Shown: positions 765-28,642 of the stretch, one piece after another
How positions within the stretch are numbered: the first letter of the stretch is position 1
Layout: the number at the start of each line of letters is the position of its first letter
Source of the DNA: a virus
Direction: 5' to 3' (one strand)
Length of the DNA: 50,391 bases
Virus record (IMG/VR): IMGVR_UViG_3300003155_000001
Coordinates: 1-50,391 of that record
Notes under the pieces: generated by a model
Told to the model about the DNA's origin: nothing
What the model saw: the letters and a program-made list of their open reading frames with translations, nothing else
Databases searched by the model: none
Made by a program: the position numbers and the translations under genes

Positions 765-1160
765 ATGCCTTGTAACTTATATAACAATAATGGCTTTGGG
801 TGTGGTGGCTGTAAGCATTTTATAAGGACAACAAGCGTTGCGTTAAACGGGACAGTGCTCGAACTGAATATACCGCAAGCTACATACAGTAACAAAGAAA
901 AGGTTTGCATCTGTGTTGCGCAGGCAATCCCGGATGTGACAAGTGCGGACACCGTTGCTATCACAATTGGCACGAGCGCCACGCAGTATCCACTCCGTAC
1001 AAAGTGCGGAAACAATGTCCATGCAGATCAGATCCGCAGTCGAAAGGTATACCACACATTCGTAGCGACTGACATCCCTCAGTTTACGGTTTCCGAATGC
1101 GAGCTGTGTTGCACTGGGTTTAATTTCCCGACGATCCCGGTCGCCGCTCCAGCAGTGTAA
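765..1160 (+). CDS. Cys-rich hypothetical protein (N-terminal CxxxxxxxxxCxxC, then beta-rich body)
   Basis: ATG 765 lies 7 nt after AAGGAG. The longer ORF-track start at 708 lies inside the upstream terminator. MPCNLYNNNGFGCGGCKHF.. and a C-terminal CELCC. Confidence 0.6.
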   Translation: MPCNLYNNNGFGCGGCKHFIRTTSVALNGTVLELNIPQATYSNKEKVCICVAQAIPDVTSADTVAITIGTSATQYPLRTKCGNNVHADQIRSRKVYHTFVATDIPQFTVSECELCCTGFNFPTIPVAAPAV

Positions 1161-1161
1161 C

Positions 1162-1374
1162 ATGGGGAACGGGAACACTTATGACTTTCTGGACGCCCTG
1201 ACCGCCGTTAGTTTTCTGATGAGCCTAGCGAACTACAAAGAAAATATAACACAGTCCGGGCTACAGGAAATCGTACATGAGCTGTTATCCAGTATTGACG
1301 GACATTTGCAGGAGCAGGATAGAAAAATAGATGAAATATATAATATGTTAAAGGAGGGCGAAAAACATGCGTAG
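1162..1374 (+). CDS. Hypothetical protein (70 aa)
   Basis: ATG sits 1 nt after the upstream stop (coupled). No clear SD. Confidence 0.5.
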   Translation: MGNGNTYDFLDALTAVSFLMSLANYKENITQSGLQEIVHELLSSIDGHLQEQDRKIDEIYNMLKEGEKHA

Positions 1375-2206
1375 GAATAACATAGGCACTATGGATGACA
1401 TGCGTGACGATCCGGGCACAAGGGACGATATGGAAATGCGCAGAAGACCAGATATGATGATGCACGATCAGCAGTCCGGCATGTCTATTCCGACACAAAG
1501 AGGCACAGCGAAAACGCAGAAAGTACAGGCCGCTGAAAACGTATATAATGTGATTAATGAGCACATGTGTAAGGGTGTTGCATTCCATGAGCAATTAGCG
1601 GATTATTTCTGTTTTCTCGGCCTGAAGGGATATAAAAAGATGCTGGAATACCAGTACATGAAAGAATGTGCTGAGAAAAGGGATCTGCACAGACGTTATA
1701 TCGAAGTGCACCAGAAAATTCTCCCTGTGAAACAGGTAAGGATCCCGGAGTTTATCCCGTCCGATTGGAGCCGTTACACAACAGAAGACATCGACGACAC
1801 AGTGGTTTCTAAGTTCGTTCGGGCGGCTCTGAAAGAGTGGAAAAACTGGGAAGAAAAAACAAAAGATCTGTATGAGGATCAGTGTGACATTCTGATGCAG
1901 GCAGGCCTTATATCAGACAGCGAATTTGTGAAAGACCTGATTGTGGATGTTGAGAAAGAAATGAAAAAGGTCGCACAGATCATGGAAAGCCTGAATGGAA
2001 CCGGATATGATGCAACCATGATTCACAGCCAGCAGGATAAGTATAACAAAACATACAAGAAAAAGTATGACGATCACTTTACCGTGAAAAACAACTATCG
2101 TATGCCGACGTATGACAGATATATCCCGCCGTACTATGATACAGACGAAGAAGACGACGACTGGGAAGAAACCGGAGTGCGCCGCAGACGCTGGGGCTTT
2201 GTGTGA
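1367..2206 (+). CDS. Ferritin-like four-helix-bundle domain protein with M/D/R-rich N-terminus and acidic-Trp C-terminal region
   Basis: RBS AAGGAGG. The core VINEHMCKGVAFHEQLADYF..GLKGYKKMLEYQYMKECAEKRDLHRRYIE..ALKEWKNWEEKTKDLYEDQ..FVKDLIVDVEKEMKKV aligns by eye helix-for-helix with bacterial ferritin (FtnA). Only some metal ligands are kept. Confidence 0.5.
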   Translation: MRRNNIGTMDDMRDDPGTRDDMEMRRRPDMMMHDQQSGMSIPTQRGTAKTQKVQAAENVYNVINEHMCKGVAFHEQLADYFCFLGLKGYKKMLEYQYMKECAEKRDLHRRYIEVHQKILPVKQVRIPEFIPSDWSRYTTEDIDDTVVSKFVRAALKEWKNWEEKTKDLYEDQCDILMQAGLISDSEFVKDLIVDVEKEMKKVAQIMESLNGTGYDATMIHSQQDKYNKTYKKKYDDHFTVKNNYRMPTYDRYIPPYYDTDEEDDDWEETGVRRRRWGFV

Positions 2207-2424: not shown

Positions 2425-2718
2425 ATGGCAAAGTATACAGTAAAGTTTGAGCAGTGCGGACATGAAGGAGTCGTAGAACTCTTTGGAAAGAATGAACAGA
2501 GGGCAAGAAAGATTGAGTATATTTCAAAATATCATCTCTGCCCGGAGTGTTACAAGGAAATGAAAGAAGCGGAGAAAGCAGAAAACTGCGAAGAAGTTGA
2601 AATGAAGTACTACGAGTACAAAAAGAACTACGCAGGATGCAAAACAAAAGCAGACAGCTACAACAGGCGGGAGAAAACAATCGTTGTATATGTCCAGAAA
2701 GAAGGTGCGACAGAATGA
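2425..2718 (+). CDS. Hypothetical protein with CGH..CPEC zinc-ribbon-like motif
   Basis: ATG 2425 follows AAGGAGAAAG. The ORF-track start 2368 would overlap the -10 of P1. Confidence 0.6.
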   Translation: MAKYTVKFEQCGHEGVVELFGKNEQRARKIEYISKYHLCPECYKEMKEAEKAENCEEVEMKYYEYKKNYAGCKTKADSYNRREKTIVVYVQKEGATE

Positions 2719-2963
2719 AAGAAATAGAAGCTTATAGAAAAGCAGTAGAGCAAAAGCTATCACAAGTAAGGAGATCACTAATCACACCGTTAGAGGGTAT
2801 GACATACTGTTCCGGTTATTTAAGATGTATGCTTGACCAGAATATCGTGGAAGGTGTGGAGTGTTCTCGTGAGCTGGATGACATGTGCAGAAAGTTTCTG
2901 GAAGAAGATGCAAGACTCCAGAGAAGAAAAGAAATGATGGAAGGATGGTTGAACAAAGAATGA
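2715..2963 (+). CDS. Hypothetical protein
   Basis: ATGA start/stop overlap with the upstream gene (ATG 2715, TGA 2716-2718). Confidence 0.55.
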   Translation: MKEIEAYRKAVEQKLSQVRRSLITPLEGMTYCSGYLRCMLDQNIVEGVECSRELDDMCRKFLEEDARLQRRKEMMEGWLNKE

Positions 2964-3127
2964 CACCTTATCAGTATCGCAAATTAAAAAACAGGATTTT
3001 TCCAGCTCTTAGGACTTGGCATAATATAAAAAATGTTATGTTAGATCTGTTAAAGGTAATTGGTGTTTTTGTTGGGTTTGTTCTTTTTCCGTGTGTTGTC
3101 TATACAATCTTAAATTTTTTAATGTAA
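2960..3127 (+). CDS. Small membrane protein (one C-terminal TM)
   Basis: ATGA overlap at 2960-2963. Hydrophobic stretch VIGVFVGFVLFPCVVYTILNFL. The start could also be 2945. Confidence 0.5.
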   Translation: MTPYQYRKLKNRIFPALRTWHNIKNVMLDLLKVIGVFVGFVLFPCVVYTILNFLM

Positions 3128-3131
3128 CATA

Positions 3132-3160
3132 TTGACAACTCCGGGAGAACAGAATAAAAT
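3132..3160 (+). promoter_or_regulatory. Sigma-A type promoter P2
   Basis: TTGACA 3132-3137, 17 nt, TAAAAT 3155-3160. Confidence 0.6.
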
Positions 3161-3199
3161 AAAAGTGTAGCAAGTAAAGCAGAAAAGGAGAAAGAAAAG

Positions 3200-3775
3200 A
3201 TGAAAAATTATGAAGAAATGACAGTGCCGCAGTTAAGAGAAGAATGCAAAACAAGAGATATACCAAGACAGGAAGGAGGAAAGAAGCTCACAAAGTCAGA
3301 GCTGATTGAGCGTCTGGAAAAGTCCGATAAGGAAAATACTCAGATGTGGGGCTACAAGGAAGCATCCAACAGCCCAGAGCAGGAAACAGAAGAAGAAGAG
3401 CGTATCACATATGAACATGATCTTCTTCCGAGGATTAATGATCTTGTTAGCAAGTACAGCGGATCCAATAACATCGAAAAGATCTGTGTTGGGTGTCGTG
3501 TTGTATATATCAGACTTGTGGAAACAAAGTCAGGCCGGATTATAAAAAAGCTTTCTACGGCTGTTGTATTAAACACAAAGAAAGCGTCTGGGATTGCACA
3601 GGTCAAAACGACCATTGGCACAACAGATGTTAGGAATTTTAAGGAGTTCATTTATGTGTCTGTTCCGTCTGAGGGGAGATATCCGGAGGATATTGCAGAG
3701 ACTCTGAGACTTCAGAGAACCGAAAGAGAACAGTTTCTTAAGGAGCTGGAAGCAATAAAAGAGCGCAGACAGTAG
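3200..3775 (+). CDS. HeH/SAP (Rho-N-like) motif protein with beta-rich C-terminal domain
   Basis: RBS AAGGAGAAAG. N-terminus MTVPQLREECKTRDIP..KLTKSELIERLEK has the helix-extended-helix pattern. Confidence 0.6.
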   Translation: MKNYEEMTVPQLREECKTRDIPRQEGGKKLTKSELIERLEKSDKENTQMWGYKEASNSPEQETEEEERITYEHDLLPRINDLVSKYSGSNNIEKICVGCRVVYIRLVETKSGRIIKKLSTAVVLNTKKASGIAQVKTTIGTTDVRNFKEFIYVSVPSEGRYPEDIAETLRLQRTEREQFLKELEAIKERRQ

Positions 3776-4330: not shown

Positions 4331-5279
4331 CGGGAAAGACCTTTTAAAGGTGCTTGTGTTTTATGGTCTAGCGCCGCCCGAGATACATACATCTAAATTC
4401 AAGATTGTGTGTCCGTTTCATGGCGATTTAAATCCGAGTATGCAGATTGACTTAGATGATGGAAGTTTCTACTGCTACGGATGCGGCGCAAACGGAGACG
4501 CAAGAGCATTCGTGTCTATGGTAAAGCCGGAGTTAGGCGAACTCGATACGTGTATTGCGCTGGAGAAAATTATAAAAAGCAACGAGATCCAGCGGCTACA
4601 TGTTCGGTACAAAAAGAAGAGGAGAAAGAAAAACAGACAAGCGCTATCTGAAGCAAAAGACTACTATTATGGTCTGCGTACGGTGGACTGGAAAGCCCCT
4701 AGAAATGAAGAAGAAGTAAAAGCCTTGAAATATATGAAGTCGAGAGGTTTTGGCTCGTATGCGTTAAATACTGCGGGTTGTAAGGCCACATATGACAAGT
4801 ATTATCCAGTTGTGTTTCCGATACTTGATAACGGAGAATTTCGAGGGTATGTATGTCGTACAGATAACAAGCGAGTGGAACAAAAACGGAAGTATCTGTA
4901 TAACGAAGGTTTTGACAAGCGTAACACCCTGTGTGGTACTTACACTGAGAATAAAGCTGTATTTCTATGTGAAGGGTATTTTGACTATCTGTCTTTAAAG
5001 GCAAGGGGGCATGTTAAAAATGCTTGTGCGGTTCTTGGATGGCATATTTCAGATGGGCAGTTAGAGGAGTTAAACAGCAAACATATTACTATTGTTGTCT
5101 CTGCACTTGATAATGACCGTTGTGGAGAAAAAGGGACAGAGCTATTAAAACAATATTTTAAGGTGATTCGTTTCCCGTTTCCTGACGGAGTAAAAGACCC
5201 CGGAGAAATGACAGAAGAGCAAATGAAAAAAGCAGTAAAACATGTAAGAGAGGAGTTGGAACATGCAAATAGAAGTTAG
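4314..5279 (+). CDS. dnaG: DNA primase (CHC2 zinc finger + TOPRIM), no helicase domain
   Basis: CPFHGDLNPSMQIDLDDGSFYCYGCGANGD (CHC2 finger). TOPRIM motifs CEGYFDYLSL and ALDNDRCGEKG. Confidence 0.85.
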   Translation: MIRRYDGKDLLKVLVFYGLAPPEIHTSKFKIVCPFHGDLNPSMQIDLDDGSFYCYGCGANGDARAFVSMVKPELGELDTCIALEKIIKSNEIQRLHVRYKKKRRKKNRQALSEAKDYYYGLRTVDWKAPRNEEEVKALKYMKSRGFGSYALNTAGCKATYDKYYPVVFPILDNGEFRGYVCRTDNKRVEQKRKYLYNEGFDKRNTLCGTYTENKAVFLCEGYFDYLSLKARGHVKNACAVLGWHISDGQLEELNSKHITIVVSALDNDRCGEKGTELLKQYFKVIRFPFPDGVKDPGEMTEEQMKKAVKHVREELEHANRS

Positions 5280-7139: not shown

Positions 7140-7423
7140 GACTGATTGATGCTGATGAACTGATAAAACGGATAGAGAATTCGAGAAACAACAATCCTCA
7201 TAAAGATTGCCGCGTCAAGAGAAACCATGACATAGAGCATTATCATTTTATAAAAATGGTGTATGGTCAGCCGACAGTATTTGACAAGGAGAAGGTGCTT
7301 GATGAATTGAAAGGAGAGATAGACCTGGTGGTACATAATCCGATGATTAATCCAATAATTGCTGGGAGATATATTAAGAAAAACAGGGCGATTGAGATTG
7401 TCAAGAAAGGCGGGATTGATTAA
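7136..7423 (+). CDS. Hypothetical phage protein (MRLIDADELI.. type)
   Basis: ATGA overlap at 7136-7139, with GGAGAGAGGGAG upstream. Confidence 0.6.
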   Translation: MRLIDADELIKRIENSRNNNPHKDCRVKRNHDIEHYHFIKMVYGQPTVFDKEKVLDELKGEIDLVVHNPMINPIIAGRYIKKNRAIEIVKKGGID

Positions 7424-10170
7424 TGGGAAATTTCTTCGATTTGCACAGGCATGATGAGTTTTCTTTTTTTGATGGTTTCGGAAAACCCTCAGAACTTGCA
7501 CAGATTGCAAAGGAGAAAGGATACGATGCTCTGGGTATCAGTAATCATGGAAATATCAGCGGTCTTGTCCAGCACTGGCTTGCCTGTAAAGAAGCAGGCA
7601 TAAAACCTGTTATGGGATGTGAGGTCTATTTTCAGCCAAAATATAATAAGGAGAATCCACAGAGGAAATCATATCATTTGTGCGTGTTTGTGAAGAATTT
7701 GACAGGGTACAAAAACCTATGTCACATGATGACAGAAGCGAATACAGAACAATTTTATTACAAGCCGATTGTTGATTTCAGGCTGTTGGAAAAGTACAGC
7801 GAAGGTCTTATTTGTACCACGGCTTGTATCGCCAGTGCTACGTCACAAGCAATTGTGAATGGTAATGCCGACACGGCAGAAAAGTTATTAAAGAAGTTCA
7901 AGAGCATTTTCGGGAAAGATCTGTATGTTGAGATACAGCCGTATAAGATCGACAAGAAAGGAACACAACAGAAAACAGATTATGTGTTAATGGGACTTGC
8001 CAGAAAGCTGAAAATAAAATGTATCCTCACGTCCGATAGTCATTATGGCAGAAAAGAAGATTTCGATACTTATTGTAAGATGCATGAGATCGGTAAGACT
8101 ACTTTGGACGTAAAAAATACATACGGCGAAAGGTATATGCCAACAGAGTATGAGATCACAGAACGTTTCGCTAAGATATATCAGAAGAAAATAAAGAATA
8201 GCATGGAATTAGCAGAACGGTTTGTTGATAACATGAAAGAAATTTATGACAAAGTTGAGGATGACATATTGAGTCAGAGCGAGTTACATCTTCCAAAGAT
8301 TTCCGATGATCCCACTTTTGACAGCGAAAAAGAATTGAGAAGGCTTGTATCGAAAGGTCTGAAAAAGCGAGGGAAATGGAATAGAGAATATCGCAACAGA
8401 TGTTTGATGGAACTTGATGTAATCCATTACCATGGATTTGACGACTATTTTTTGATGGTGCAGGAATACGTGAACTGGGCGAGGGAACACGGTATTGCAG
8501 TCGGGCCCGGACGTGGTTCAGCATGTAATTGCCTTGTTGCCTATGCCATTGGCATAACAGATGTGGACAGCATAAAGTATAAGCTGGATTTCAGTCGATT
8601 CATGCGAAAGGAGAAAAAGAAGCTTCCGGATATTGATGTTGACTTCGAAACAGATCGGCGGCAGGAAGTGATAGACCATGTAATACAGAGGTATCCGGGT
8701 AGAGCTGTCCAGATATGCTCTTACGGCGAATATAGCGTAAAATACCTTGTAAATGATCTTTCCGGTGTGTGTGGCTTGAGAACATCCGGAGATGAATTGG
8801 ACGACTGGGACAAGGAGCAGAATAAAAAAGTTGTTGCTGACATAAAACGGTATATCAACAGTTTCGAGGAAGACGGAAAGATTAACTTTGAAAAGCTTCT
8901 CGACGATCCGCGGACAGAAGAATATAACAGCCAGTATGACAACATAATAAAACATTTTTGCAAGATGTACGGCAAAGTGAGACAGCTCGGTACACATGCG
9001 GCCGGGGTTGCTGTTGTCGGAACAGATATCTCGGATTATACCTGTGTTGTAAAACGTGGAGACAGTTTTCGATCTTGTTACGATCTGAATGATCTGGAGC
9101 ATATTAATTGTACAAAGTTCGACATGCTTGGCCTGAAAACCGTTTCAGAGCTGTTGGAGCTGGAGCAGATAACAGGGCATAAGGTGACTGACGAAGACAT
9201 TGAACAGCCAGAAATCTATGAGAATTTTCAGAAAGGGAACACGGACGGTATTTTCCAGATGGAGAAATCAGCACCAAAGGATATTCTGAGGATGATACGT
9301 TGTGATTGTATTGAGGACGTAATCGCAGTAAATGCTCTGAACCGTCCAGCTCCACTACAGTTAAAAATGCATGAAACATATGCATACAATAAATTGTCTG
9401 GGAAAACAGACACGAATACGCCATACTACAAATATACTCGTGAGACTTATGGAACGATTTTGTATCAAGAACAGACCGTAGAAGTAGCACAGAAGGTTGG
9501 CGGGTTGACTCCGGAGCAAAGCTTTGATCTGTTAAAGATTATGAAGAAAGCAGAAAATCTGACAAAACCGGAATATGTTCCGATTATTGAACAAATGAGA
9601 AAAGACTTCTTCCGGGGCTGTAAGTCGCACAGAATGACGTTAGAACAAACCAAAGAACTATGGGCAAGTATGCTGATCTATGGCTTCAACAAAGGGCATT
9701 CCACAGGGTACTCTATTATCAGTGTCGATCAAATGTGGTATAAAATGCATTATCCGGCTGTGTTCTGGTACGTAAAAATAAAGTATGCCGGGAATGACAG
9801 CGATTTCTATAAATACTGTATGTTCGCCGCAAAGGATGGGGCTGTGGTTATGCTTCCGCATGTTAATTACAGCGCAAAGACATCTATCCGTAAAATAGAT
9901 GGGGAATATGTAATCCAACAGGGATTAAACTCCGCAAAAGGAATAGGAGACAAGGCGGCGCAGGCAATTGGGGAAGAAAGAGAAAAGAACGGTGTGTTTC
10001 GTGACTTTGACGATTTCTATGACCGTTGCAAAGGCGGTGCGGTAAATGAGCGCGTAATAAAAACATTGAAAGAAAACGGTGCGCTAGAGTTCCATAGAAA
10101 AAAGTATCTGAAGCGTGTTGTTGCGTATAATAGTACATTACTCGGAAAGGCAGAAAGGATGGTAAAATGA
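7423..10170 (+). CDS. dnaE: DNA polymerase III alpha subunit-like replicase (PHP + Pol IIIa core), short form
   Basis: PHP motif FFDLHRHDEFSFFDG..ISNHG. GPGRGSA, DIDVDF and KFDMLGL motifs. 915 aa, with no obvious C-terminal OB/tau region. Confidence 0.9.
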   Translation: MGNFFDLHRHDEFSFFDGFGKPSELAQIAKEKGYDALGISNHGNISGLVQHWLACKEAGIKPVMGCEVYFQPKYNKENPQRKSYHLCVFVKNLTGYKNLCHMMTEANTEQFYYKPIVDFRLLEKYSEGLICTTACIASATSQAIVNGNADTAEKLLKKFKSIFGKDLYVEIQPYKIDKKGTQQKTDYVLMGLARKLKIKCILTSDSHYGRKEDFDTYCKMHEIGKTTLDVKNTYGERYMPTEYEITERFAKIYQKKIKNSMELAERFVDNMKEIYDKVEDDILSQSELHLPKISDDPTFDSEKELRRLVSKGLKKRGKWNREYRNRCLMELDVIHYHGFDDYFLMVQEYVNWAREHGIAVGPGRGSACNCLVAYAIGITDVDSIKYKLDFSRFMRKEKKKLPDIDVDFETDRRQEVIDHVIQRYPGRAVQICSYGEYSVKYLVNDLSGVCGLRTSGDELDDWDKEQNKKVVADIKRYINSFEEDGKINFEKLLDDPRTEEYNSQYDNIIKHFCKMYGKVRQLGTHAAGVAVVGTDISDYTCVVKRGDSFRSCYDLNDLEHINCTKFDMLGLKTVSELLELEQITGHKVTDEDIEQPEIYENFQKGNTDGIFQMEKSAPKDILRMIRCDCIEDVIAVNALNRPAPLQLKMHETYAYNKLSGKTDTNTPYYKYTRETYGTILYQEQTVEVAQKVGGLTPEQSFDLLKIMKKAENLTKPEYVPIIEQMRKDFFRGCKSHRMTLEQTKELWASMLIYGFNKGHSTGYSIISVDQMWYKMHYPAVFWYVKIKYAGNDSDFYKYCMFAAKDGAVVMLPHVNYSAKTSIRKIDGEYVIQQGLNSAKGIGDKAAQAIGEEREKNGVFRDFDDFYDRCKGGAVNERVIKTLKENGALEFHRKKYLKRVVAYNSTLLGKAERMVK

Positions 10171-10331
10171 AATATAACAGATCAACCAAAGAAGATCGAT
10201 GTAGTAATTGTGCATATAACAGATATGACAGCGAATTGAAAAGGTATTACTGTAATAATAAAGCATCAGACTGGTATGACAGCACAACGGAGTATGATGA
10301 TAGCTGCGAATTCTGGGAAGGTAAGGACTAA
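10167..10331 (+). CDS. Small Cys-rich protein (54 aa, CxxC..C..C)
   Basis: Below the ORF-track cutoff. ATGA overlap with the dnaE stop, and the ORF ends 2 nt before the recA ATG, filling the gap exactly. Confidence 0.5.
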   Translation: MKYNRSTKEDRCSNCAYNRYDSELKRYYCNNKASDWYDSTTEYDDSCEFWEGKD

Positions 10332-10333
10332 GT

Positions 10334-11248
10334 ATGAAAGCAATGGACAAAGCAAGAATTATGAAGTTATGCGAAGACATAAACAAGAAAGAGGGAGAAG
10401 GATCTGTCTATAGTCTGGGATCGAAAAACGGAAATCTGAGAATAAAACGCTGGTCAACTGGGATCCCTGATCTGGATGCAATTATTGGAGGTGGAATGCC
10501 GTGCGGAAGAACTGTCGAGGTTTTTGGTGCAGAGTCAGCCGGGAAAACCTCTTTAATGTATCATTTGTGCGGGATGCATGAGTTGTGTCTACACATTCCG
10601 ATAGAAGGAACATTTGACGCTGACAGGGCAAGGGTGTTTGGAAATCGCAAACAGCAAATGATCCTCTACAAAGCGAAATACGGAGAGAAAGCTTTTAATC
10701 GTGCGATTCGTTTTGCAGAGGAGGGGATCCCGTTAATTACGATAGATAGTGTCCCGTCCATGCAACCAAAAGACGATGTGGATAGAATCAGAAAAGCAGT
10801 AAATACAGACAGCGAACAGGAAATGAGAATCGGAGGCGTTGCCCGGTTAATGGATAAGTATCTTCCCACCTTGGAGGATGTAATAGAGCAGACTGGGACA
10901 ACTGTTATATTTGTTAATCAGATCCGTGACAAGATGAACGCCTTGCCGTTCGGGGATAATATACAGACTCCCGGAGGCCATAAGCTGAAACACAGTGCAA
11001 GCCTTAGAATACAGGTTGCTCGGAAAGGATACATCGAAATTCCGAACTATAATCCACGTAACGCAGAGGCCAAAGAGCGTATCGGAATAATTATGAAGTG
11101 CAAGGTCGTGAAGTCTAAGGTATGCAATCCCATGCAGTCGTGTGAGATCCCACTGATTTATGAGAGGGGATTTGTAGATTTTGTGGACTTGGACGCGGTC
11201 AGAAAAGAGATCATGAAAGAGCACAAAGAAAGGTATCTAGGAAAGTGA
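10334..11248 (+). CDS. recA: RecA-family recombinase
   Basis: Walker A GAESAGKTS, FVNQIRDKM, and PGGHKLKHSASLRIQV parallel to RecA GGNALKFYASVRLDI. Confidence 0.85.
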   Translation: MKAMDKARIMKLCEDINKKEGEGSVYSLGSKNGNLRIKRWSTGIPDLDAIIGGGMPCGRTVEVFGAESAGKTSLMYHLCGMHELCLHIPIEGTFDADRARVFGNRKQQMILYKAKYGEKAFNRAIRFAEEGIPLITIDSVPSMQPKDDVDRIRKAVNTDSEQEMRIGGVARLMDKYLPTLEDVIEQTGTTVIFVNQIRDKMNALPFGDNIQTPGGHKLKHSASLRIQVARKGYIEIPNYNPRNAEAKERIGIIMKCKVVKSKVCNPMQSCEIPLIYERGFVDFVDLDAVRKEIMKEHKERYLGK

Positions 11249-13521: not shown

Positions 13522-13985
13522 GAAAATGTTGTTGTTACAGTTGCATTCATTTGCATAAAGAAAACCCTATTGTTTCGGGGGAAATGGCGTTGTATCGTTG
13601 TACAAGTCAAAAGAGGAACGGGCGCTGTGACGGATGGGTTCTACGTGATGATCCGGAGGCTGGCCTTGCACAGCTGGGATGTTCTTATGGTAACAAGTTG
13701 TATTCCGGAGACATAATAGAGGTTGAGAGCATATTCAGTGATAGCAAACAACGCTATCTGTATTGCGGGAAGTTAAGAGGATACAGGCTTATTGTTGATA
13801 TGCCAGAGTTTGTTCCTCATGTTGTGCCAAACAGTTGGTTCAGGTCTATGACTGGGAGACTCATGAGACAGAATCACATTATTATACAGGAGAAAGAACA
13901 GGGTGCATATTATAAAAAGTTGGCGCGATCCATAAAAGAGAGGTATAACCATGAGCGACAAAAAGATGAGGGAAAGAGATTATAA
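13506..13985 (+). CDS. Cys-rich hypothetical protein
   Basis: ATG 13506 lies 11 nt after GGAG (GTG 13497 is the alternative). N-terminus RKCCCYSCIHLH. Confidence 0.55.
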   Translation: MAERVRKCCCYSCIHLHKENPIVSGEMALYRCTSQKRNGRCDGWVLRDDPEAGLAQLGCSYGNKLYSGDIIEVESIFSDSKQRYLYCGKLRGYRLIVDMPEFVPHVVPNSWFRSMTGRLMRQNHIIIQEKEQGAYYKKLARSIKERYNHERQKDEGKRL

Positions 13986-14742
13986 GAAAAGGTTTTTGAA
14001 TGGATTAAACCTGTTGTGTAAGACAAGAAATATGTATGAAGTATGGTCTGATGCTATGTATCTGTTCGCTACTGGGATTGCAAACCCGATAATCTCTCAA
14101 TTCAGAGAAAATGCAGTGTTTAAGGACGTATGGGAAGAAAGAGAACGGGAATATCTGAGGATCATTAACAAGTACAATAAGAAGGAACAGAGATTATTTC
14201 CTCAGATGCTCGCGCTACTTGTGAAAGAACTAGACATTCATCCATGGCAGGACTTGATAGGTGAAATCTATATGATGTCTGGGATATCAAGCAAAGATAA
14301 AGGACAGTTTTTCACGCCCTATAGTGTATGTCAGATGATGGCTGGGATAACAATGCAAAAGAAAGCGGTTGCAAGGACAGTTCATACGGATGGATATGCT
14401 TCTGTATACGATTCGGCATGCGGGGGTGGTGCAACACTAATAGCCGCCATTGAGCAATGCTCTAAGATATTCAAGAAACTGAATTATCAAAATCATGTAT
14501 ACTTTGTAGGTCAGGACATTGACCGTACTGTTGCTAATATGTGTTATATACAGTTATCTTTGCATGGTGTTGCGGGATATGTTGTGATAGGAAATACAAT
14601 AACAGAACCAGTGGTAACAGACTTACATAGGATCTGGTTTACTCCGACATGGTTTAGTGATGTGTGGACATTGCGCAGGCTGTTTCACGGACAAAATATT
14701 CTAGGAGATGAAATCAAAAAGAAATGTCAAAAGCAACGTTAA
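13951..14742 (+). CDS. HsdM/N6-adenine-methyltransferase-like SAM-binding protein lacking the NPPY/F catalytic motif
   Basis: GQFFTP (motif X-like), YDSACGGGATL (motif I), VGQDIDRTVANMCYIQLSLHG..IGNTI (motifs II-III). The protein ends ~40 aa later with no (N/D)PP(Y/F). Confidence 0.55.
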   Translation: MSDKKMRERDYKKRFLNGLNLLCKTRNMYEVWSDAMYLFATGIANPIISQFRENAVFKDVWEEREREYLRIINKYNKKEQRLFPQMLALLVKELDIHPWQDLIGEIYMMSGISSKDKGQFFTPYSVCQMMAGITMQKKAVARTVHTDGYASVYDSACGGGATLIAAIEQCSKIFKKLNYQNHVYFVGQDIDRTVANMCYIQLSLHGVAGYVVIGNTITEPVVTDLHRIWFTPTWFSDVWTLRRLFHGQNILGDEIKKKCQKQR

Positions 14743-14906
14743 AGATTACAAAGTGCAAGGGCGAAGGACAGGGGCATTGTAAGATGTGTTCCGATAATGG
14801 AAAATGGAATAGAAATTGGATGTGCTTTCTTTATGAGATTCAGGAATATGAAGGTTGCTATTGTTCCGAATGTGTTAAGAAGATAAAGGAGAAACAAAGT
14901 GGATAA
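14724..14906 (+). CDS. Small zinc-ribbon protein (60 aa)
   Basis: CKGEGQGHCKMC...CYCSEC. Overlaps both neighbours. Confidence 0.5.
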   Translation: MSKATLKITKCKGEGQGHCKMCSDNGKWNRNWMCFLYEIQEYEGCYCSECVKKIKEKQSG

Positions 14907-15531
14907 GGTAGTAATCGGGATAGACCAGAGTTATACCAGAACAGGTATTACAGTGCTGGTAGACAGAGAAGTTTTTGAAGTGTACAGTATCGATTTTAAG
15001 GGATGTAAGAATAATACAGAGAAGCGTATAACACTAAGAGGGAAGATTATAGATATTATTAATCAGGCAGTGTCAGAAATAAAATCGGAAAATATCATAA
15101 TTATTTGTGAAAGGATTCGTTTAAGGTCGCAAGGTTTTCTGTCTGAGAACTATATCAAATCAACAGGAGCATTGATTGCAAGCATTATTGACATTTGTTA
15201 TGGCTATAATCTCCCCGTTTATTCTGTAGATACAAGAGCATGGAAATCCGCTATTATTGGTAGCAGTAAACCTCTAAACAATCCATATGGTATCAATCCA
15301 GAGAAGTACCGCACAATCTTGTATATGCGTGATAAAGGGCTTTTAAGTTGGATTGCCGAGGAATATTCAGGTAGGGGAGAAAAAGGCGTTATATGGGCAA
15401 ATAGAACGGTGAGAGGGCATAAAGAAAAAGTCCGCATTAAGGTAAATGATGACCTGGCTGATTCCTATTGTATTGCCTTATATGGTTTCCTGCCAAAGTC
15501 AAAACAAAAGCTGAAAGAAGAACGATTTTAG
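14899..15531 (+). CDS. ruvC: RuvC-like Holliday junction resolvase
   Basis: GTG start after AAAGGAGAAA. VIGIDQSYTRTG (first Asp), IICERI (Glu), and DDLADSYCIALYG (C-terminal acidic pair). Confidence 0.7.
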   Translation: MDKVVIGIDQSYTRTGITVLVDREVFEVYSIDFKGCKNNTEKRITLRGKIIDIINQAVSEIKSENIIIICERIRLRSQGFLSENYIKSTGALIASIIDICYGYNLPVYSVDTRAWKSAIIGSSKPLNNPYGINPEKYRTILYMRDKGLLSWIAEEYSGRGEKGVIWANRTVRGHKEKVRIKVNDDLADSYCIALYGFLPKSKQKLKEERF

Positions 15532-15560
15532 GGCGTGAACAATCATGCCCTTATTTTATT
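15531..15560 (+). terminator. Rho-independent terminator
   Basis: GGGCGTGA-acaa-TCATGCCC (one G.U pair) followed by TTATTTTATT. Confidence 0.7.
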
Positions 15561-15582
15561 GCAATAAATTATAACATAAGGG

Positions 15583-15611
15583 TTGACATAACATAACAAT
15601 TGTGTTATTAT
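15583..15611 (+). promoter_or_regulatory. Sigma-A type promoter P4 with ATAACA/TGTTAT boxes
   Basis: TTGACA 15583-15588, 17 nt, TGtTATTAT ending at 15611. ATAACA at 15571, 15588 and 15593, and TGTTAT at 15603. Confidence 0.7.
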
Positions 15612-15652
15612 AATATCAGAACAAAGGAGAGCACAAGAGAGGAGCAGAGGAA

Positions 15653-15964
15653 ATGAGTATTAAATATTCTGAAATGACAGATGAGCAGTTATTAGAGCTT
15701 CAAACTAACCTCACAGCAAGAGGTAACTATAATGCGGCTGTTGAGGTTAGTGACTTTCGAAAGCTGTTTAACAAAAAAGTCAAAGTCGTGAAAGGGAGAA
15801 AGGTTCCTAGAGGAACAATCGGAACATGTTTCTGGGTAAAGCGATATAATTACTCTCGTTATGGAGATGCATGGGGAATATACAGCGACACAAGAATAGG
15901 GATCAGGACAGCAGATGGAGAGGTGCATTTTACATCATCCAATAACGTGGAAGTAATAGCATGA
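15653..15964 (+). CDS. Hypothetical protein (103 aa)
   Basis: RBS GAGGAG upstream. Confidence 0.6.
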   Translation: MSIKYSEMTDEQLLELQTNLTARGNYNAAVEVSDFRKLFNKKVKVVKGRKVPRGTIGTCFWVKRYNYSRYGDAWGIYSDTRIGIRTADGEVHFTSSNNVEVIA

Positions 15965-23888: not shown

Positions 23889-24632
23889 ATGAGTAGAGAA
23901 CATATTATATATAAGCCTATTAGGGATTTAAGGCCATATAAAAAGAATGCAAAGAAACATCCGAAACAGCAGATAGAACAGATTGCAAACAGTATTAAAG
24001 AATTCGGTTTTACTCAGCCCGTGTTGATTGACAAGCATAACAATGTTGTAGCGGGACATGGCAGGGTGCTGGGCGCAAAGAAAGCAGGATTAACAGAAGT
24101 GCCTGCATTATGTTTGGATGGTCTGACAGAAGAGCAGGTAAAGGCATACAGGTTAGCAGATAACAAACTGAATGAAAGTGCGTGGGATAGTGTGCTGTTG
24201 AGTCAGAGTTTAGATGAGATCACAGAGCTTGATATGAGCTTGTTTGGTTTTGATCTGGGAGAAGCAGTGGAACAGGAAGAACAGAAATACACGATGAAAA
24301 CAAATATTCCACAGTATGAACCAAAAGGGGAAGAACCAGACATAACAGAGCTTGTGGATATCAGCAAAACAAAGGAGCTGTTAGAACGAATTGAAGCGAG
24401 TGACGTAACAAAGAAACAGAAACGGTTCTTAAGGCTTGCCGCATACAGACACTTATGTTTTAACTACAGTAAGATTGCAGAGTATTATTGTCATCAGAAC
24501 AAGGAGATGCAGGAGCTCATGGAGGACAGTGCCCTTGTTATTATTGACTTTGATGATGCAATTGCAAAAGGCTATGTTCAGTTATCAAAACAGGTAGCAT
24601 TACTGAGAGGAGAGCAGGAACATGAGGCATAA
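23889..24632 (+). CDS. ParB N-terminal (ParB-like nuclease) domain protein
   Basis: IRDLRPYKKNAKKHPKQQIEQIANSIKEFGFTQPVLID..VVAGHGRVLGAKKAGL..VP and YRLADNKL are typical ParBc motifs. Confidence 0.85.
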   Translation: MSREHIIYKPIRDLRPYKKNAKKHPKQQIEQIANSIKEFGFTQPVLIDKHNNVVAGHGRVLGAKKAGLTEVPALCLDGLTEEQVKAYRLADNKLNESAWDSVLLSQSLDEITELDMSLFGFDLGEAVEQEEQKYTMKTNIPQYEPKGEEPDITELVDISKTKELLERIEASDVTKKQKRFLRLAAYRHLCFNYSKIAEYYCHQNKEMQELMEDSALVIIDFDDAIAKGYVQLSKQVALLRGEQEHEA

Positions 24633-25485
24633 AAGTTTTGTTGTGTTCATCCTGTCTCATGGTAGGGCAAGTAATGTAAAAACATTAAAGACTTTAAAGC
24701 GTGCCGGATATACTGGTAAGGTTCTTATTGTGATAGACAGTGAAGACCCCTTAGAAGATGATTATAAGCGCATATACGGGAAATCAAGCGTTGTGGTGTT
24801 TGATAAGTCAAAGGCGTCTGGGTTGTTTGATATTATGGACAATTACGATGATAGCAGAGGGGTTGTTTATGCAAGAAATGTCTGTTTTGACGTAGCGGAA
24901 CAAACGGGATACGAGTATTTTCTGGAGCTAGACGACGATTACACATTGTTCGAATACAGAACAAGAGAGAACGGAAAGCTGAAAAGTCAGAGAGTAGAGA
25001 ACATAGACAGTCTGTTTGATGCTATGTTGGACTTTCTGGATGTGTCTGGTGCTTATACTGTAGCGTTTGCTCAGGGAGGGGATTTGATTGGAGGGACAGA
25101 GAACGGGAATTATAACAAGAAGTTGCTAAGAAAGGCGATGAATAGTTTCTTCTGTAGAACAGATAGACGGTTCACATTTGATGGAAGAATAAACGAAGAT
25201 ACTGTTATGTACTGTAAGATGGGAATTCAGGGAAAGCTGGTGTTTACCTATACAGATGTTGACCTTGTGCAGACTCAAACGCAGAAGCAGAAAGGCGGTC
25301 TGACAGAGCAATATCTTGATGTAGGAACGTATGTGAAATCATTTTATACGGTAATGTGTTGTCCTAGTTGTGTAACAATTGGAATGATGGGCGGTAGCAA
25401 GAAGGGTATGAGACTGCACCATATGATATCATGGAATCATTGTTGCCCTAAAATTATATCAGAGAAATACAAAAAGCAGAACTGA
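24622..25485 (+). CDS. Putative GT-A-fold glycosyltransferase-like protein (DxD)
   Basis: N-terminal beta-strand FVVFILSHGRAS, ARN, and the DxD-like YFLELDDDYTLF. Reminiscent of phage TET/JBP-associated glycosyltransferase (TAGT)-type proteins. Unverified. Confidence 0.4.
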   Translation: MRHKSFVVFILSHGRASNVKTLKTLKRAGYTGKVLIVIDSEDPLEDDYKRIYGKSSVVVFDKSKASGLFDIMDNYDDSRGVVYARNVCFDVAEQTGYEYFLELDDDYTLFEYRTRENGKLKSQRVENIDSLFDAMLDFLDVSGAYTVAFAQGGDLIGGTENGNYNKKLLRKAMNSFFCRTDRRFTFDGRINEDTVMYCKMGIQGKLVFTYTDVDLVQTQTQKQKGGLTEQYLDVGTYVKSFYTVMCCPSCVTIGMMGGSKKGMRLHHMISWNHCCPKIISEKYKKQN

Positions 25486-26106: not shown

Positions 26107-27374
26107 ATGAATATAAGTGTTACTGTTCCGGATCGGTTTGTATCATTTCTGACCGACTGGGATTATAGACAGTACCTCTCATTCGGCGGCTATGGAAGCG
26201 GAAAAAGTTATAGTGTAGCATTAAAGATAATCTTAAAGTTGATGGAAGAAAAGCGGACAGCGCTTGTGGTAAGAAATGTATTTGAAACAATTAGAGACAG
26301 TTGTTTTTCATTGCTTCGTGAGATCCTTGACGGAATGGGGATACTGTCTGAGACAAAATCTTTAAACAGGAGAAATACTGGAAAGGTAGTAGCCGTAACA
26401 AGTCCTATGGAGATTCGTTTTCCGAATGGAAGCAGGATTATATTCAGAGGACTTGATAATCCGGAGAAAATAAAGTCTATTAATGGCGTGTCTATTGTGT
26501 GGATCGAGGAGTGTTCTGAGATTACTTTTCAGGCGTATACGGAATTACTCGGACGTATTCGCGGTAAGGGAGTAACAAAGCATTTCTTTTTGACTTGTAA
26601 TCCTGTTGGTCGTTGGAACTGGGTATACAATACATTTTTTGTGCACCTGAACGACGATGGAACAGAGCTGGTAATACAGGATGAAGAAGAAGTATACAAA
26701 AAGCGCACAGTTGTTAGAAACGGTGTGTATTATATGCACAGTGTTGTGGACGACAATCCATTTGTTGAGGACAGCTATGTAAGGCAGTTGGACTCGCTAA
26801 AGCAATTGGATCCTGAACTGTGGGTTGTTGCAAGGTGGGGACGCTTTGGCGTAAGCGGAACAAGAGTGTTGCCGAACTTTGTGGTCGCTCGCAATGCTAC
26901 ACAGTTTAAGGCGAAAGTAAACAGTATCCCGGCAAGGTTCCATTTTTTTGGTCTTGACTTTGGATTCGAGGAAAGCTATAATGCCCTTGTCTCTTGTGCG
27001 GTTGATGATGAGAATAAGGATCTGTACATTTATGATGAGGTATATGTAAACCACGTAACGGACGATCGATTCAGTCAGAGACAGGATGTGAGAAAGGTAG
27101 CAGAGAGGGCAGGAAGGTGCAAAAAGGCAATAGGTGCTGATGGTGCTGAGCCGAAGTCAATACAATTCTACAGACAGCAGGGGTTTAACATGTATGCCGC
27201 GAAAAAGTACGTAGGGAGCAGATTACAGAACACGAAGAAGATGAAGCGTTTCCGACATATCTATTGCTCTCCAAAGTGCAAGAACACAATCCGGGAGCTG
27301 AAAGAGTTAACATATAGAAAGGACACAAAAGGCAATGTAATCTATGATGAGTTTAACATCGATCCGCACACGTT
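26107..27374 (+). CDS. terL: Terminase large subunit, exon 1 (PBSX/Terminase_3-like)
   Basis: Walker A GGYGSGKSYS, Walker B-like IVWIEEC, and a nuclease domain. The exon end is inferred from the P1 pairing and frame (see intron finding). Confidence 0.8.
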
Positions 27375-28329
27375 TAACTACCACAAACTAGGCGTGTATA
27401 AAGTGATGGAAAAACGGGGAAGCTGAGATGCTAATCCGAGCGGAAGTTATGAACGGTAACAGAACATAACACGCGCAACGCATAGGGACTGAGGAAACAA
27501 GAACGTCCCCACGAGCCATTGCAATTTATAATAAAGGAGATGCAATCAATGTATGAGAGAAAAAGAGTGAATACATTGGAAAAAGAATACGAACAAGTGC
27601 TTGACGTCTACGAAGTAGACAAATATGGAAATGTTTATGGGACAAATGGGATGGAATTAAAACAGGAGCTGAATAGTTCTGGGTATTGTTATGTATCATT
27701 AAAAATAAAAGGACAAAGAAGATGGAAGAAGTGTCTTGTGCATCGTTTGGTCGGGTACGGTTTTGTTGATGGGAGAACAGAACAATATAATGAAATTGAC
27801 CATAAAAATACAAACAAACGAATTAATCGGTGGGATAATTTGAAGTGGACAGATCGTGTCGGGAATATGAACAATGAGAACACTGTTGAGAAGATGAAGA
27901 ATCAAAACGGTATGAAATGTTATGTCTATGATTTTAGATTAGATTTCATTGGGAAATATGATTCCATGACAGAAGCAGAGAGATTTATCGGAAGAACGAT
28001 ATATGGAATAAATACTAGAGTAAAAGAGTATTATGTTCTGGGTAAGCCAGATCTGAATATTGTTTTAAAGATAAATAGAAAACAGAGAATACAATCTGTT
28101 GTTATTACTGACATGTATACAATGGAAAAACATTATTTTTATTCTAACCGAGAAGCAAGAAAGTTTTTTGGAAATAAGGTAAACATAACACAAGCCATAC
28201 AAAAGAATTGGACTGTAAAGGGAAGATTTAAAGTTCGTAATCTGAATTATAAAAAATTAATAGGTATGCTAGACTTATAAGAAGCGAATTATAAGAGGAT
28301 TCGGATAAAAAGCCGAGTTGATGACAACG
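27375..28329 (+). mobile_element. Putative group I intron with HNH homing-endonuclease ORF
   Basis: The 5' exon ends in U. P1 pairs ACACGUU 27368-27374 with GGCGUGU 27391-27397. P10 pairs ACUA 27387-27390 with UAGU 28330-28333. The last intron nt is G (28329). It carries ORF 27549..28280. Confidence 0.65.
27549..28280 (+). CDS. HNH (HNH_3/AP2-type) homing endonuclease
   Basis: YCYVSLKIKGQRRWKKCLVHRLV..EIDHKNTNKRINRWDNLKWTDRVGNMNN. ATG 27549 lies 9 nt after AAAGGAG. AT-rich relative to the terL exons. Confidence 0.85.
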   Translation: MYERKRVNTLEKEYEQVLDVYEVDKYGNVYGTNGMELKQELNSSGYCYVSLKIKGQRRWKKCLVHRLVGYGFVDGRTEQYNEIDHKNTNKRINRWDNLKWTDRVGNMNNENTVEKMKNQNGMKCYVYDFRLDFIGKYDSMTEAERFIGRTIYGINTRVKEYYVLGKPDLNIVLKINRKQRIQSVVITDMYTMEKHYFYSNREARKFFGNKVNITQAIQKNWTVKGRFKVRNLNYKKLIGMLDL

Positions 28330-28405
28330 TAGTGCATTGTGGTATGCGTTGGACAAATACACTGTAGCTGATGTCAAAAAACGGAAACCGAATACAAAGA
28401 GGTAA
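28330..28405 (+). CDS. terL: Terminase large subunit, exon 2 (last 24 codons plus the third base of the split Phe codon)
   Basis: Spliced reading gives ..NIDPHTF|SALWYALDKYTVADVKKRKPNTKR*. The stop at 28403-28405 lies 3 nt before the next ATG. Total 1344 nt, in frame. Confidence 0.6.
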
Positions 28406-28408
28406 GAG

Positions 28409-28642
28409 ATGATAAAACAGAATAAAATAAAAGAGCTAAAGAGATTGAGAGACTTACAAAAGGACAGCATAGGGTCTGAATATGCATGTGGATTGCATAA
28501 TGGACTGGAGCTTGCAATATCTGTTCTGGAGGGCAGAGAGCCTATTATGGAGACTTTTGACAGTGTGCCCGAAGTAATAGAGGGCGAAGAGGAAAAGCCC
28601 GGTAGAACGGTGTTTAGCGGGGTCAGAAAGCGTGGTGTATAA
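28409..28642 (+). CDS. Hypothetical protein (77 aa)
   Basis: RBS AAGAGG upstream. Confidence 0.6.
   Translation: MIKQNKIKELKRLRDLQKDSIGSEYACGLHNGLELAISVLEGREPIMETFDSVPEVIEGEEEKPGRTVFSGVRKRGV

Follow-up and report, generated by a model that had tools for sequence, protein, structure and literature searches.

The gene for the terminase large subunit (terL) of the IMG/VR virus record IMGVR_UViG_3300003155_000001, analysed here as a single stretch of 50,391 nucleotides (nt; positions 1 to 50,391 of the record, hereafter the window), is interrupted close to its 3' end by a 955-nt insert that has the anatomy of a group I intron and carries in one of its loops a gene for an HNH homing endonuclease. 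Based on the conservation of its predicted fold and of the reading frame around it, we consider it very probable that this insert is a functional mobile group I intron of the IA-like type, whose excision would restore the TerL protein. A preliminary description of the region, made from the letters alone, had already proposed an endonuclease-bearing intron in terL, and its open reading frame (ORF) coordinates, the 122-nt and 128-nt gaps on either side of the endonuclease ORF, the exon-2 frame at 28325..28405 and a join of 447 amino acids (aa) all proved exact on re-reading. The parts of the interrupted gene are as follows, with (+) standing for the plus strand:

26107..27426 (+): terL ORF as called in the ORF list, unspliced, with a read-through product of 439 aa
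26107..27374 (+): terL exon 1, 422 codons plus 2 nt, ending CAC ACG UU (last base U), based on the ORF list, Pfam and uninterrupted homologues
27375..27426 (+): read-through tail NYHKLGVYKVMEKRGS and stop of the unspliced ORF, made up of intron bases (L1, the guide, P3, P4 and the beginning of P5) that take part in covarying helices
28330..28405 (+): terL exon 2, U plus 24 codons plus TAA, with its first bases UAGU in P10, based on a gapless alignment of homologues

The exon-2 frame is open from 28325 to the TAA at 28403-05, and the ATG of the next gene lies at 28409. The join of 26107..27374 with 28330..28405 is in frame (1268+76 nt, 447 aa), and the ligated terL RNA would read ..CACACGUU followed by UAGUGC.. 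where 27374 meets 28330. This places the insertion at the codon after a His-Thr pair, 25 codons before the terL stop, in the C-terminal part of the TerL nuclease domain. The preliminary description had held that the plain ORF call gives TerL a wrong C-terminus, and had proposed comparing spliced and unspliced TerL on the Terminase_3 models and against intron-less relatives; both comparisons bear this out. In Pfam searches TerL matches the ATPase domain Terminase_3 with 186 bits, while Terminase_3C is matched by the spliced form with 126.4 bits up to position 154 of 155, and by the unspliced form with 110.1 bits up to position 145 of 155, a gain of 16 bits from splicing. Positions 1-154 of the 155 are covered in spliced TerL only, which combines the N-terminal ATPase domain with a complete C-terminal RNase H-like nuclease domain. 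With spliced TerL as a tblastn query more than 1000 phage records were matched, and uninterrupted TerLs cover residue 423 in a single piece, as in Anoxybacillus phage A403 (52% identity over aa 3-446). Across the junction the spliced protein aligns without gaps to A403 and to Dulem virus 36 (segment DAHTFDSIAYALD in the latter; longer stretch YDEFNIDAHTFDSIAYALDTYTVADL), both of which are uninterrupted at this site, and the nuclease structure of SPP1 G2P (Protein Data Bank, PDB, 2WBN) aligns with TerL residues 281-432, likewise through the junction. Further, among homologues the first 15 codons of exon 2 show far more synonymous than non-synonymous differences (9:1 in the comparison with the homologous locus L004), which indicates that the exon-2 codons appear to be under purifying selection. 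Taken together, these comparisons support the 447-aa join of 26107..27374 and 28330..28405 as the probable true TerL product; the plain ORF call would then exchange the last 25 residues of TerL, a part of the nuclease domain that homologues conserve, for 17 unrelated ones.

An alternative is that a free-standing HNH gene has split or truncated terL without RNA splicing. The working TerL would then be either the 439-aa read-through protein or a pair of polypeptides, and its last 22-25 residues would be lost or translated on their own. Phage genes split by free-standing endonuclease genes do exist, and relatives of this locus are annotated as separate terminase, endonuclease and hypothetical genes. 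Yet the read-through tail NYHKLGVYKVMEKRGS, with which unspliced TerL would end ..FNYHKLGVYKVMEKRGS, has no counterpart among the aligned TerL homologues, and exon 2 has no ATG and no ribosome-binding site (RBS) of its own, its sole in-frame start being a TTG at 28337 that lies inside the conserved segment. This alternative also gives no reason for the properties of the flanking RNA described below, and we regard it as highly improbable.

The insert itself can be read as a group I ribozyme, with the following elements:

27375..28329 (+): group I intron, 955 nt, IA-like, without P2
27368-74 and 27391-97 (+): P1, exon ACACGUU with the internal guide GGCGUGU, 7 base pairs (bp), U27374.G27391 at the 5' splice site
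27387-90 and 28330-33 (+): P10, guide ACUA (in the L1 loop) with exon-2 UAGU
27403-09 and 27516-22 (+): P3, GUGAUGG with CCAUUGC, the 3' strand directly after a conserved CACGAG
27410-14 (+): J3/4, AAAAA
27415-18 and 27435-38 (+): P4, CGGG with UCCG; the P4-P6 domain occupies 27415..27474
27421-23 and 27430-32 (+): P5, AGC with GCU, loop UGAGAU
27440-42 and 27472-74 (+): P6, GCG with CGC
27446-51 and 27465-70 (+): P6a, GUUAUG with CAUAAC
27480-84 and 28265-69 (+): P7, GCAUA with UAUGC, preceded by J6/7 GCAAC; G27480-C28269 is the candidate guanosine-binding pair
27485-89 and 27505-09 (+): P7.1 hairpin, GGGAC with GUCCC, between P7 and P3'
27523-27 and 28254-58 (+): P8, AAUUU with AAAUU
28260-64 (+): J8/7
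28274-80 and 28289-95 (+): P9 hairpin, CUUAUAA with UUAUAAG
28298-304 and 28313-19 (+): P9.1 hairpin, GAUUCGG with CCGAGUU, with the family-invariant loop AUAAAAAG
28329 (+): omega-G, the terminal intron G, which marks the 3' splice site

The helices of the window were mapped from the layout of ORF-free members of a wider intron family that is discussed below. P1 with its U.G pair, P10 and G28329 had been pointed out in the preliminary description and are present; the P3-P9 core, which it had left untraced, can now be followed, together with P9.1. These elements form a P3/P7 pseudoknot enclosing P4-P6, and their order is that of the consensus of the Rfam group I model RF00028. A single-sequence thermodynamic fold of the ORF-deleted window intron recovers P1, P3, P4, P5, P6, P6a, P7.1, P9 and P9.1 (z = -2.19). 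Hairpins of the P7.1/P7.2 and P9.1 types are marks of subgroup IA, and the presence of both P7.1 and P9.1 in the predicted fold assigns the intron an IA-like architecture. The literature likewise names P7.1/P7.2, placed between P7 and P3', and an extension of the P9 region as marks of this subgroup (PMC4227781, PMC3984707). Two other assignments were tried and rejected: CACGAG as a strand of P7 finds no partner in the 3' part, and GCGUGU/ACACGC as P3 conflicts with the topology of the P4-P6 domain. The helix topology, being that of group I, also speaks against an intein or a group II intron, which would account for the interruption of a conserved gene and for nothing else. The insert is out of the terL frame, with a stop at 27424-26, the endonuclease lies in another frame with its own RBS, and neither a reverse transcriptase nor a match to an Rfam group II domain was found in the region; this possibility appears already refuted by the sequence and its probability is close to nil.

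Support for the predicted fold comes from introns at the same site of terL in other genomes. Pattern searches located the intron at this site in 6 viral and 12 metagenome contigs, and with Clostridium phage CS266P3 (locus L001) and the window added, the same-site set comprises 13 distinct complete copies. The ORF-deleted constructs of these 13 introns were aligned, and 10 helices with 50 pairs entered a formal count; MAFFT loses register at P4, P9.1 and the 5' strand of P3, and P4 and P9.1 were excluded from this count and judged by RNAalifold on other alignments, while P3 was judged by an anchor-based script with a shuffled-partner control. The proposed structure is 97.7% paired across the 13 introns, and in 14 pairs both partners have changed. 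In 500 shuffles these values were never reached, whether for the pairing, for the count of doubly changed pairs or for the score of covariation, and sliding the 3' partners by 1-3 columns lowers the pairing to 28-46%. The changes are distributed over the helices as follows: 1) In P1 the exon of L024 and L027 has changed from ACG to ACC, both encoding Thr, together with a change of the guide from GGCGUGU to GGGGUGU (column pair 10/34, GC in 11 copies and CG in 2); this is the most telling of the changes, and a clear example of a synonymous exon change co-evolving with the guide sequence of an intron. 2) In P10 the exon-2 start AGAUGG and the guide AUAUCA of L032 are both altered and pair as AGAU(G)/(U)AUC with one mismatch, and in L007 the helix stretches to 6 bp; P10 is short, and the evidence that it provides is modest. 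3) P3 has compensatory changes in L007 (A-U to U-A) and L069 (G-C to A-U). 4) P6a has compensatory changes among the 13 copies. 5) P7.1 has two compensatory pairs (GC in 7 and AU in 6; CG in 7 and UA in 5). 6) In P8 L007 has AACUU/AAGUU, with U-A replaced by C-G. 7) P9 has compensatory changes in L008 and in the window itself, and the stem of P9.1 differs in sequence in nearly every copy with its pairing kept. All 13 same-site introns follow a U, the exon reading ..CACAC(G/C)UU, and end in G. On the strength of the covariation in homologues and of the shuffled and slid controls, the P1 and P10 pairings appear to exceed chance. Compensatory changes across 13 diverged copies, including those between P1 and the exon, imply continuing selection for the fold. 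A free-standing HNH gene, by contrast, gives no reason why about 220 nt of flanking non-coding RNA should keep ten covarying helices, nor for the covariation between exon and guide or the invariant terminal G.

The endonuclease is encoded entirely within the loop of P8:

27533..27539 (+): RBS AAAGGAG of the endonuclease gene, nine bases upstream, at a position conserved in homologues
27549..28280 (+): homing endonuclease gene from ATG to TAA, 243 aa, HNH plus NUMOD1, I-HmuI-like
28254..28280 (+): overlap of coding sequence and ribozyme core, in which the last nine codons (KLIGMLDL and stop) also form P8', J8/7, P7' (UAUGC) and the 5' strand of P9

The gaps around this ORF amount to 122 nt before it (27427..27548) and 128 nt after it, up to the ATG at 28409. 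Its assignment as an HNH homing endonuclease in the preliminary description is sustained and can be narrowed down to the I-HmuI type. In Pfam the protein matches NUMOD1 with 31.4 bits (cut-off 22.8), and HNH_3 with 21.9 bits, just under the cut-off of 24.8. I-HmuI is the nicking enzyme of the SPO1 DNA polymerase intron, and its structure (PDB 1U3E) matches residues 20-111 of the window protein with E=5e-7, including the stretches ..VHRLV.. and ..IDHKNTNK..N..NL.W; an HNH family of PHROG is matched with E=1.4e-18. At the position of the overlap between coding sequence and core, ORF-free relatives have AAAAGAUAUGCUGAACUUAUAG. The terminus ..KKLIGMLDL is invariant in all homologues except L005 (..KKLTGMLDL, I to T), and we ascribe this near-invariance to the double role of the last nine codons as P8', J8/7, P7' and P9. 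The same overlap would make full translation of the endonuclease and a folded ribozyme mutually exclusive on one RNA, so translation and splicing may be coupled. It has been noted for other introns that ORFs running into the core need tight control of their expression (PMC3984707).

The distribution of this intron among relatives of the phage is patchy. The nearest deposited genomes are those of the Clostridium phages CS266P1-4, with about 73% TerL identity, which carry the same insertion at the same site and a second endonuclease-bearing insertion in terL about 230 nt upstream, corresponding to the position between 27147 and 27148 of the window. This upstream insertion spans about 2530..3367 in CS266P3 (L001) and about 1040..1883 in Dulem virus 36 (L002), ends in G and contains AAGAUAUAGUCU, an element of the classical group I type. 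In the window nothing interrupts terL between 27147 and 27148, and Dulem virus 36, which has the upstream insertion only, is uninterrupted at the site occupied in the window. Thus there are three configurations, namely downstream only in the window, both in CS266P1-4 and upstream only in Dulem virus 36, and such patchy presence is consistent with a mobile element. In the deposited records of CS266P1-4 and Dulem virus 36 the pieces are annotated as fragments, comprising a truncated 'terminase large subunit', a 'DNA endonuclease I-HmuI' and a 'hypothetical protein'.

Beyond terL, the core GAGCGGAAGU-hairpin-ACACGCNCAACGCAUAGG is common to about 50 further introns in other genes, so that the proposal of a group I intron in terL is backed by the traced P3-P9 core and by covariation both at the same site and in these relatives. 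The marks of the family are GAGCGGAAGU-P6a-ACACGCNCAACGCAUAGG, P7 of the form GCAUA/UAUGC and an invariant P9.1 loop, GAUAAAAAGC. In ORF-free members the 3' half has the order CCCACGAG-P3'-P8 hairpin-(G)AAAAGAUAUGCUGA-P9 hairpin-P9.1 hairpin (loop AUAAAAAG)-GAUAACA. For 12 members of the family that lie in other genes, RNAalifold predicts P4, P5, P6, P6a and P7.1, with compensatory changes in 12 of 23 pairs, and for 42 distinct 3' tails it predicts P9 and P9.1, with compensatory changes in 10 of 11 pairs. Over the same-site copies and the wider family, each of P3, P4, P5, P6a, P7.1 and P8 has compensatory changes. P3 forms 5 of 5 bp in 29 of 31 distinct family sequences, which have 22 different 5' strands, compared with 19% for shuffled partners. 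The hosts of the family (loci L010-L073) include two sites in genes for AAA_24 (Sak4-like) ATPases, one of them inside the coding sequence of the Walker A motif, between ..YG.PK and SGKT.., as well as structural-looking genes, and the sources include gut, rumen and freshwater samples and a Dolichospermum metagenome-assembled genome. Some of the copies are ORF-free, and others have ORFs in different loops. In L048 the ORF that runs into the 5' side of the family intron has a LAGLIDADG_3 domain, implying that different members of this ribozyme family associate with different classes of endonuclease. In the metagenome contig L062 a stretch of about 5 kb contains at least three introns of group I, with canonical RF00028 matches at 4884..5171 and 9009..9297 (minus strand) and a family member near 8753..8798.

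A discordant observation is the silence of Rfam. With the gathering threshold of 50 bits RF00028 has no match in the window, nor any with E<=10 on 27300-28450. The preliminary description had proposed a covariance search with this model and had listed the lack of a group I core in it as grounds for abandoning the intron; that is literally what the search returned. We judge the miss to be a false negative rather than a refutation, because the model also misses introns that are recognizable by other means. It gives no match to the ORF-bearing upstream intron of CS266P3 and Dulem virus 36 despite the classical AAGAUAUAGUCU element, and ORF-free family members fall below the gathering threshold, the best being L071 with 17.8 bits (E=1.6), a match that did not recur in a search of that region by itself. 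The model does recover the two other introns of L062, with 92.7 and 70 bits, and these have an insertion between P7 and P3', in the same place as P7.1 of the window. When the RF00028 consensus, as seen in the L062 introns, is set beside the window, the two share the A-rich J3/4, P4-P5-P6, J6/7 CAAC, P7, the insertion between P7 and P3', P8, J8/7 AAGAUAU, P7' and a P9 with a GAAA-type loop. They differ in P7, which is GACUA/UAGUC in the RF00028 exemplars and GCAUA/UAUGC in the window, with two pairs exchanged, and the P6/P6a and P9.1 sequences are specific to the window family and unlike the consensus. Two features account for the failure of RF00028, namely the 730-nt insert in the loop and the degree to which this intron family has diverged.

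Splicing itself is something that we infer from the sequence, and several further observations weigh against a functional intron. P2 is absent. P5 comprises no more than 2-3 bp; at its first pair 8 of 13 copies have A.C, and another 2 have G.A. P8 consists of five A/U-rich pairs with one compensatory event. P7, when extended by C27479-G28272, has an unusual form with a 2-nt bulge on its 3' strand. P6 and P7 are invariant in the data set, in part because the relatives were found through a shared motif with a search pattern that fixed the 5' strands of both helices. Their sequences allow the pairing, which covariation does not prove; P7 pairs as GCAUA/UAUGC in 13 of 13 copies without variation, and the two-pair exchange relative to the canonical GACUA/UAGUC is the only change seen. 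The weak P5 and P8, the missing P2, the P7 bulge, the overlap of the endonuclease ORF with the core and the lack of an Rfam match would all suit a decayed or host-dependent intron, in which the fold is kept but self-splicing is poor or requires a protein cofactor, with low TerL levels or a regulatory bottleneck on packaging as the outcome. Against this, the helices are maintained by compensatory changes in 13 diverged copies, including those between P1 and the exon, the exon-2 frame is under apparent purifying selection, and TerL is essential in what is otherwise a complete, intact-looking phage genome. We therefore regard decay or host dependence as distinctly unlikely, although less so than a free-standing HNH gene, and the functional mobile intron as much the better reading.

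For such an intron the following course of events can be proposed. In the terL pre-mRNA the guide GGCGUGU would pair with the last seven bases of exon 1 to form P1, placing U27374.G27391 at the cleavage site, and the core would fold into the P3/P7 pseudoknot around P4-P6, together with P7.1, P8, P9 and P9.1. An external guanosine bound in P7 would attack after U27374, ACUA at 27387-90 would position exon 2 through P10, and G28329 would then take the guanosine site, with ligation of the exons giving the message for the 447-aa TerL. The intron-less terL site would read GATCCGCACACGTTTAGTGCATTGTGGTATGC, and in a co-infection the HNH enzyme would presumably nick or cut such a site, whereupon repair would copy the intron in (homing).

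Endonuclease-bearing terL introns are already known, and the element of the window is a different intron at a different site from the one in phage LL-H of Lactobacillus delbrueckii. The terL gene of LL-H has a group I intron with the HNH ORF168 (Mikkonen & Alatossava 1995, as cited in PMC4299906 and PMC8785237), and the Phage Annotation Guide uses it as its textbook example (PMC8785237). Both are endonuclease-bearing group I introns in terL, and in both cases the plain ORF call splits TerL; but in LL-H the start of the endonuclease gene is about 550 nt from that of terL, within the half that encodes the N-terminal ATPase, whereas the window site lies in the nuclease domain, 25 codons before the stop. 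On reading, the LL-H intron has a different core, in which none of the motifs of the window family was seen, and the LL-H intron was rejected as a homologue on account of its other site and other core. Bacillus megaterium phage Moonbeam has two endonuclease-bearing group I introns in its terminase gene (PMC4299906) and thus resembles CS266P1-4 in having several such introns in one terL, while the window has one, and terminases are among the typical targets of introns (PMC3984707). The closest solved relative of the window endonuclease, I-HmuI of SPO1 (1U3E), is likewise an HNH protein encoded inside a phage group I intron; it has 174 aa and its host gene is that for DNA polymerase, whereas the window protein has 243 aa with a NUMOD1 module and its host gene is terL.

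Elsewhere in the window, a 287-aa ORF at 24622..25485 (+) matches PHROG 842, 'beta-glucosyl-HMC-alpha-glucosyltransferase' (E=1e-69), which hints at possible glycosylated, hypermodified bases in the DNA of this Clostridium-type phage. In the region 13951..15964 (+) the ORF 13951-14742 matches only positions 4-135 of the 311 of N6_Mtase, i.e. the N-terminal part, and after it come a 156-nt gap, a 210-aa ORF that lacks a Pfam match, a 121-nt gap and a 103-aa ORF; this arrangement resembles an interrupted gene, and no endonuclease or intron motif was found in it. At 7423..11248 (+) there are a replicase of the DNA polymerase III alpha type (PHP, DNA_pol3_alpha and finger domains, 915 aa) and a RecA homologue.

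A broader proposition combines several of these strands: that the introns form a large, sequence-coherent IA-like family, undetected by the curated Rfam model and occupying at least five phage-gene sites (in terL, two in AAA_24 genes and in structural-looking genes) in gut, rumen, freshwater and cyanobacterial settings, and that in the terL lineage an endonuclease gene has grown into the core, making translation and folding mutually exclusive, possibly with a regulatory coupling between the two. As one joint claim this is tentative, and rather doubtful in its entirety. The value of the present analysis lies in an annotation correction and in the record of an intron family that the curated model misses. 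CS266P1-4 and Dulem virus 36 share the mis-annotation of terL as fragments. Endonuclease-bearing phage introns, and this family as a whole, escape the Rfam group I model, and an improved model could be started from the motifs and the structure presented here. With respect to the biology of these phages, the intron would add the C-terminus of the terL nuclease to the known insertion sites of introns in phage packaging genes.

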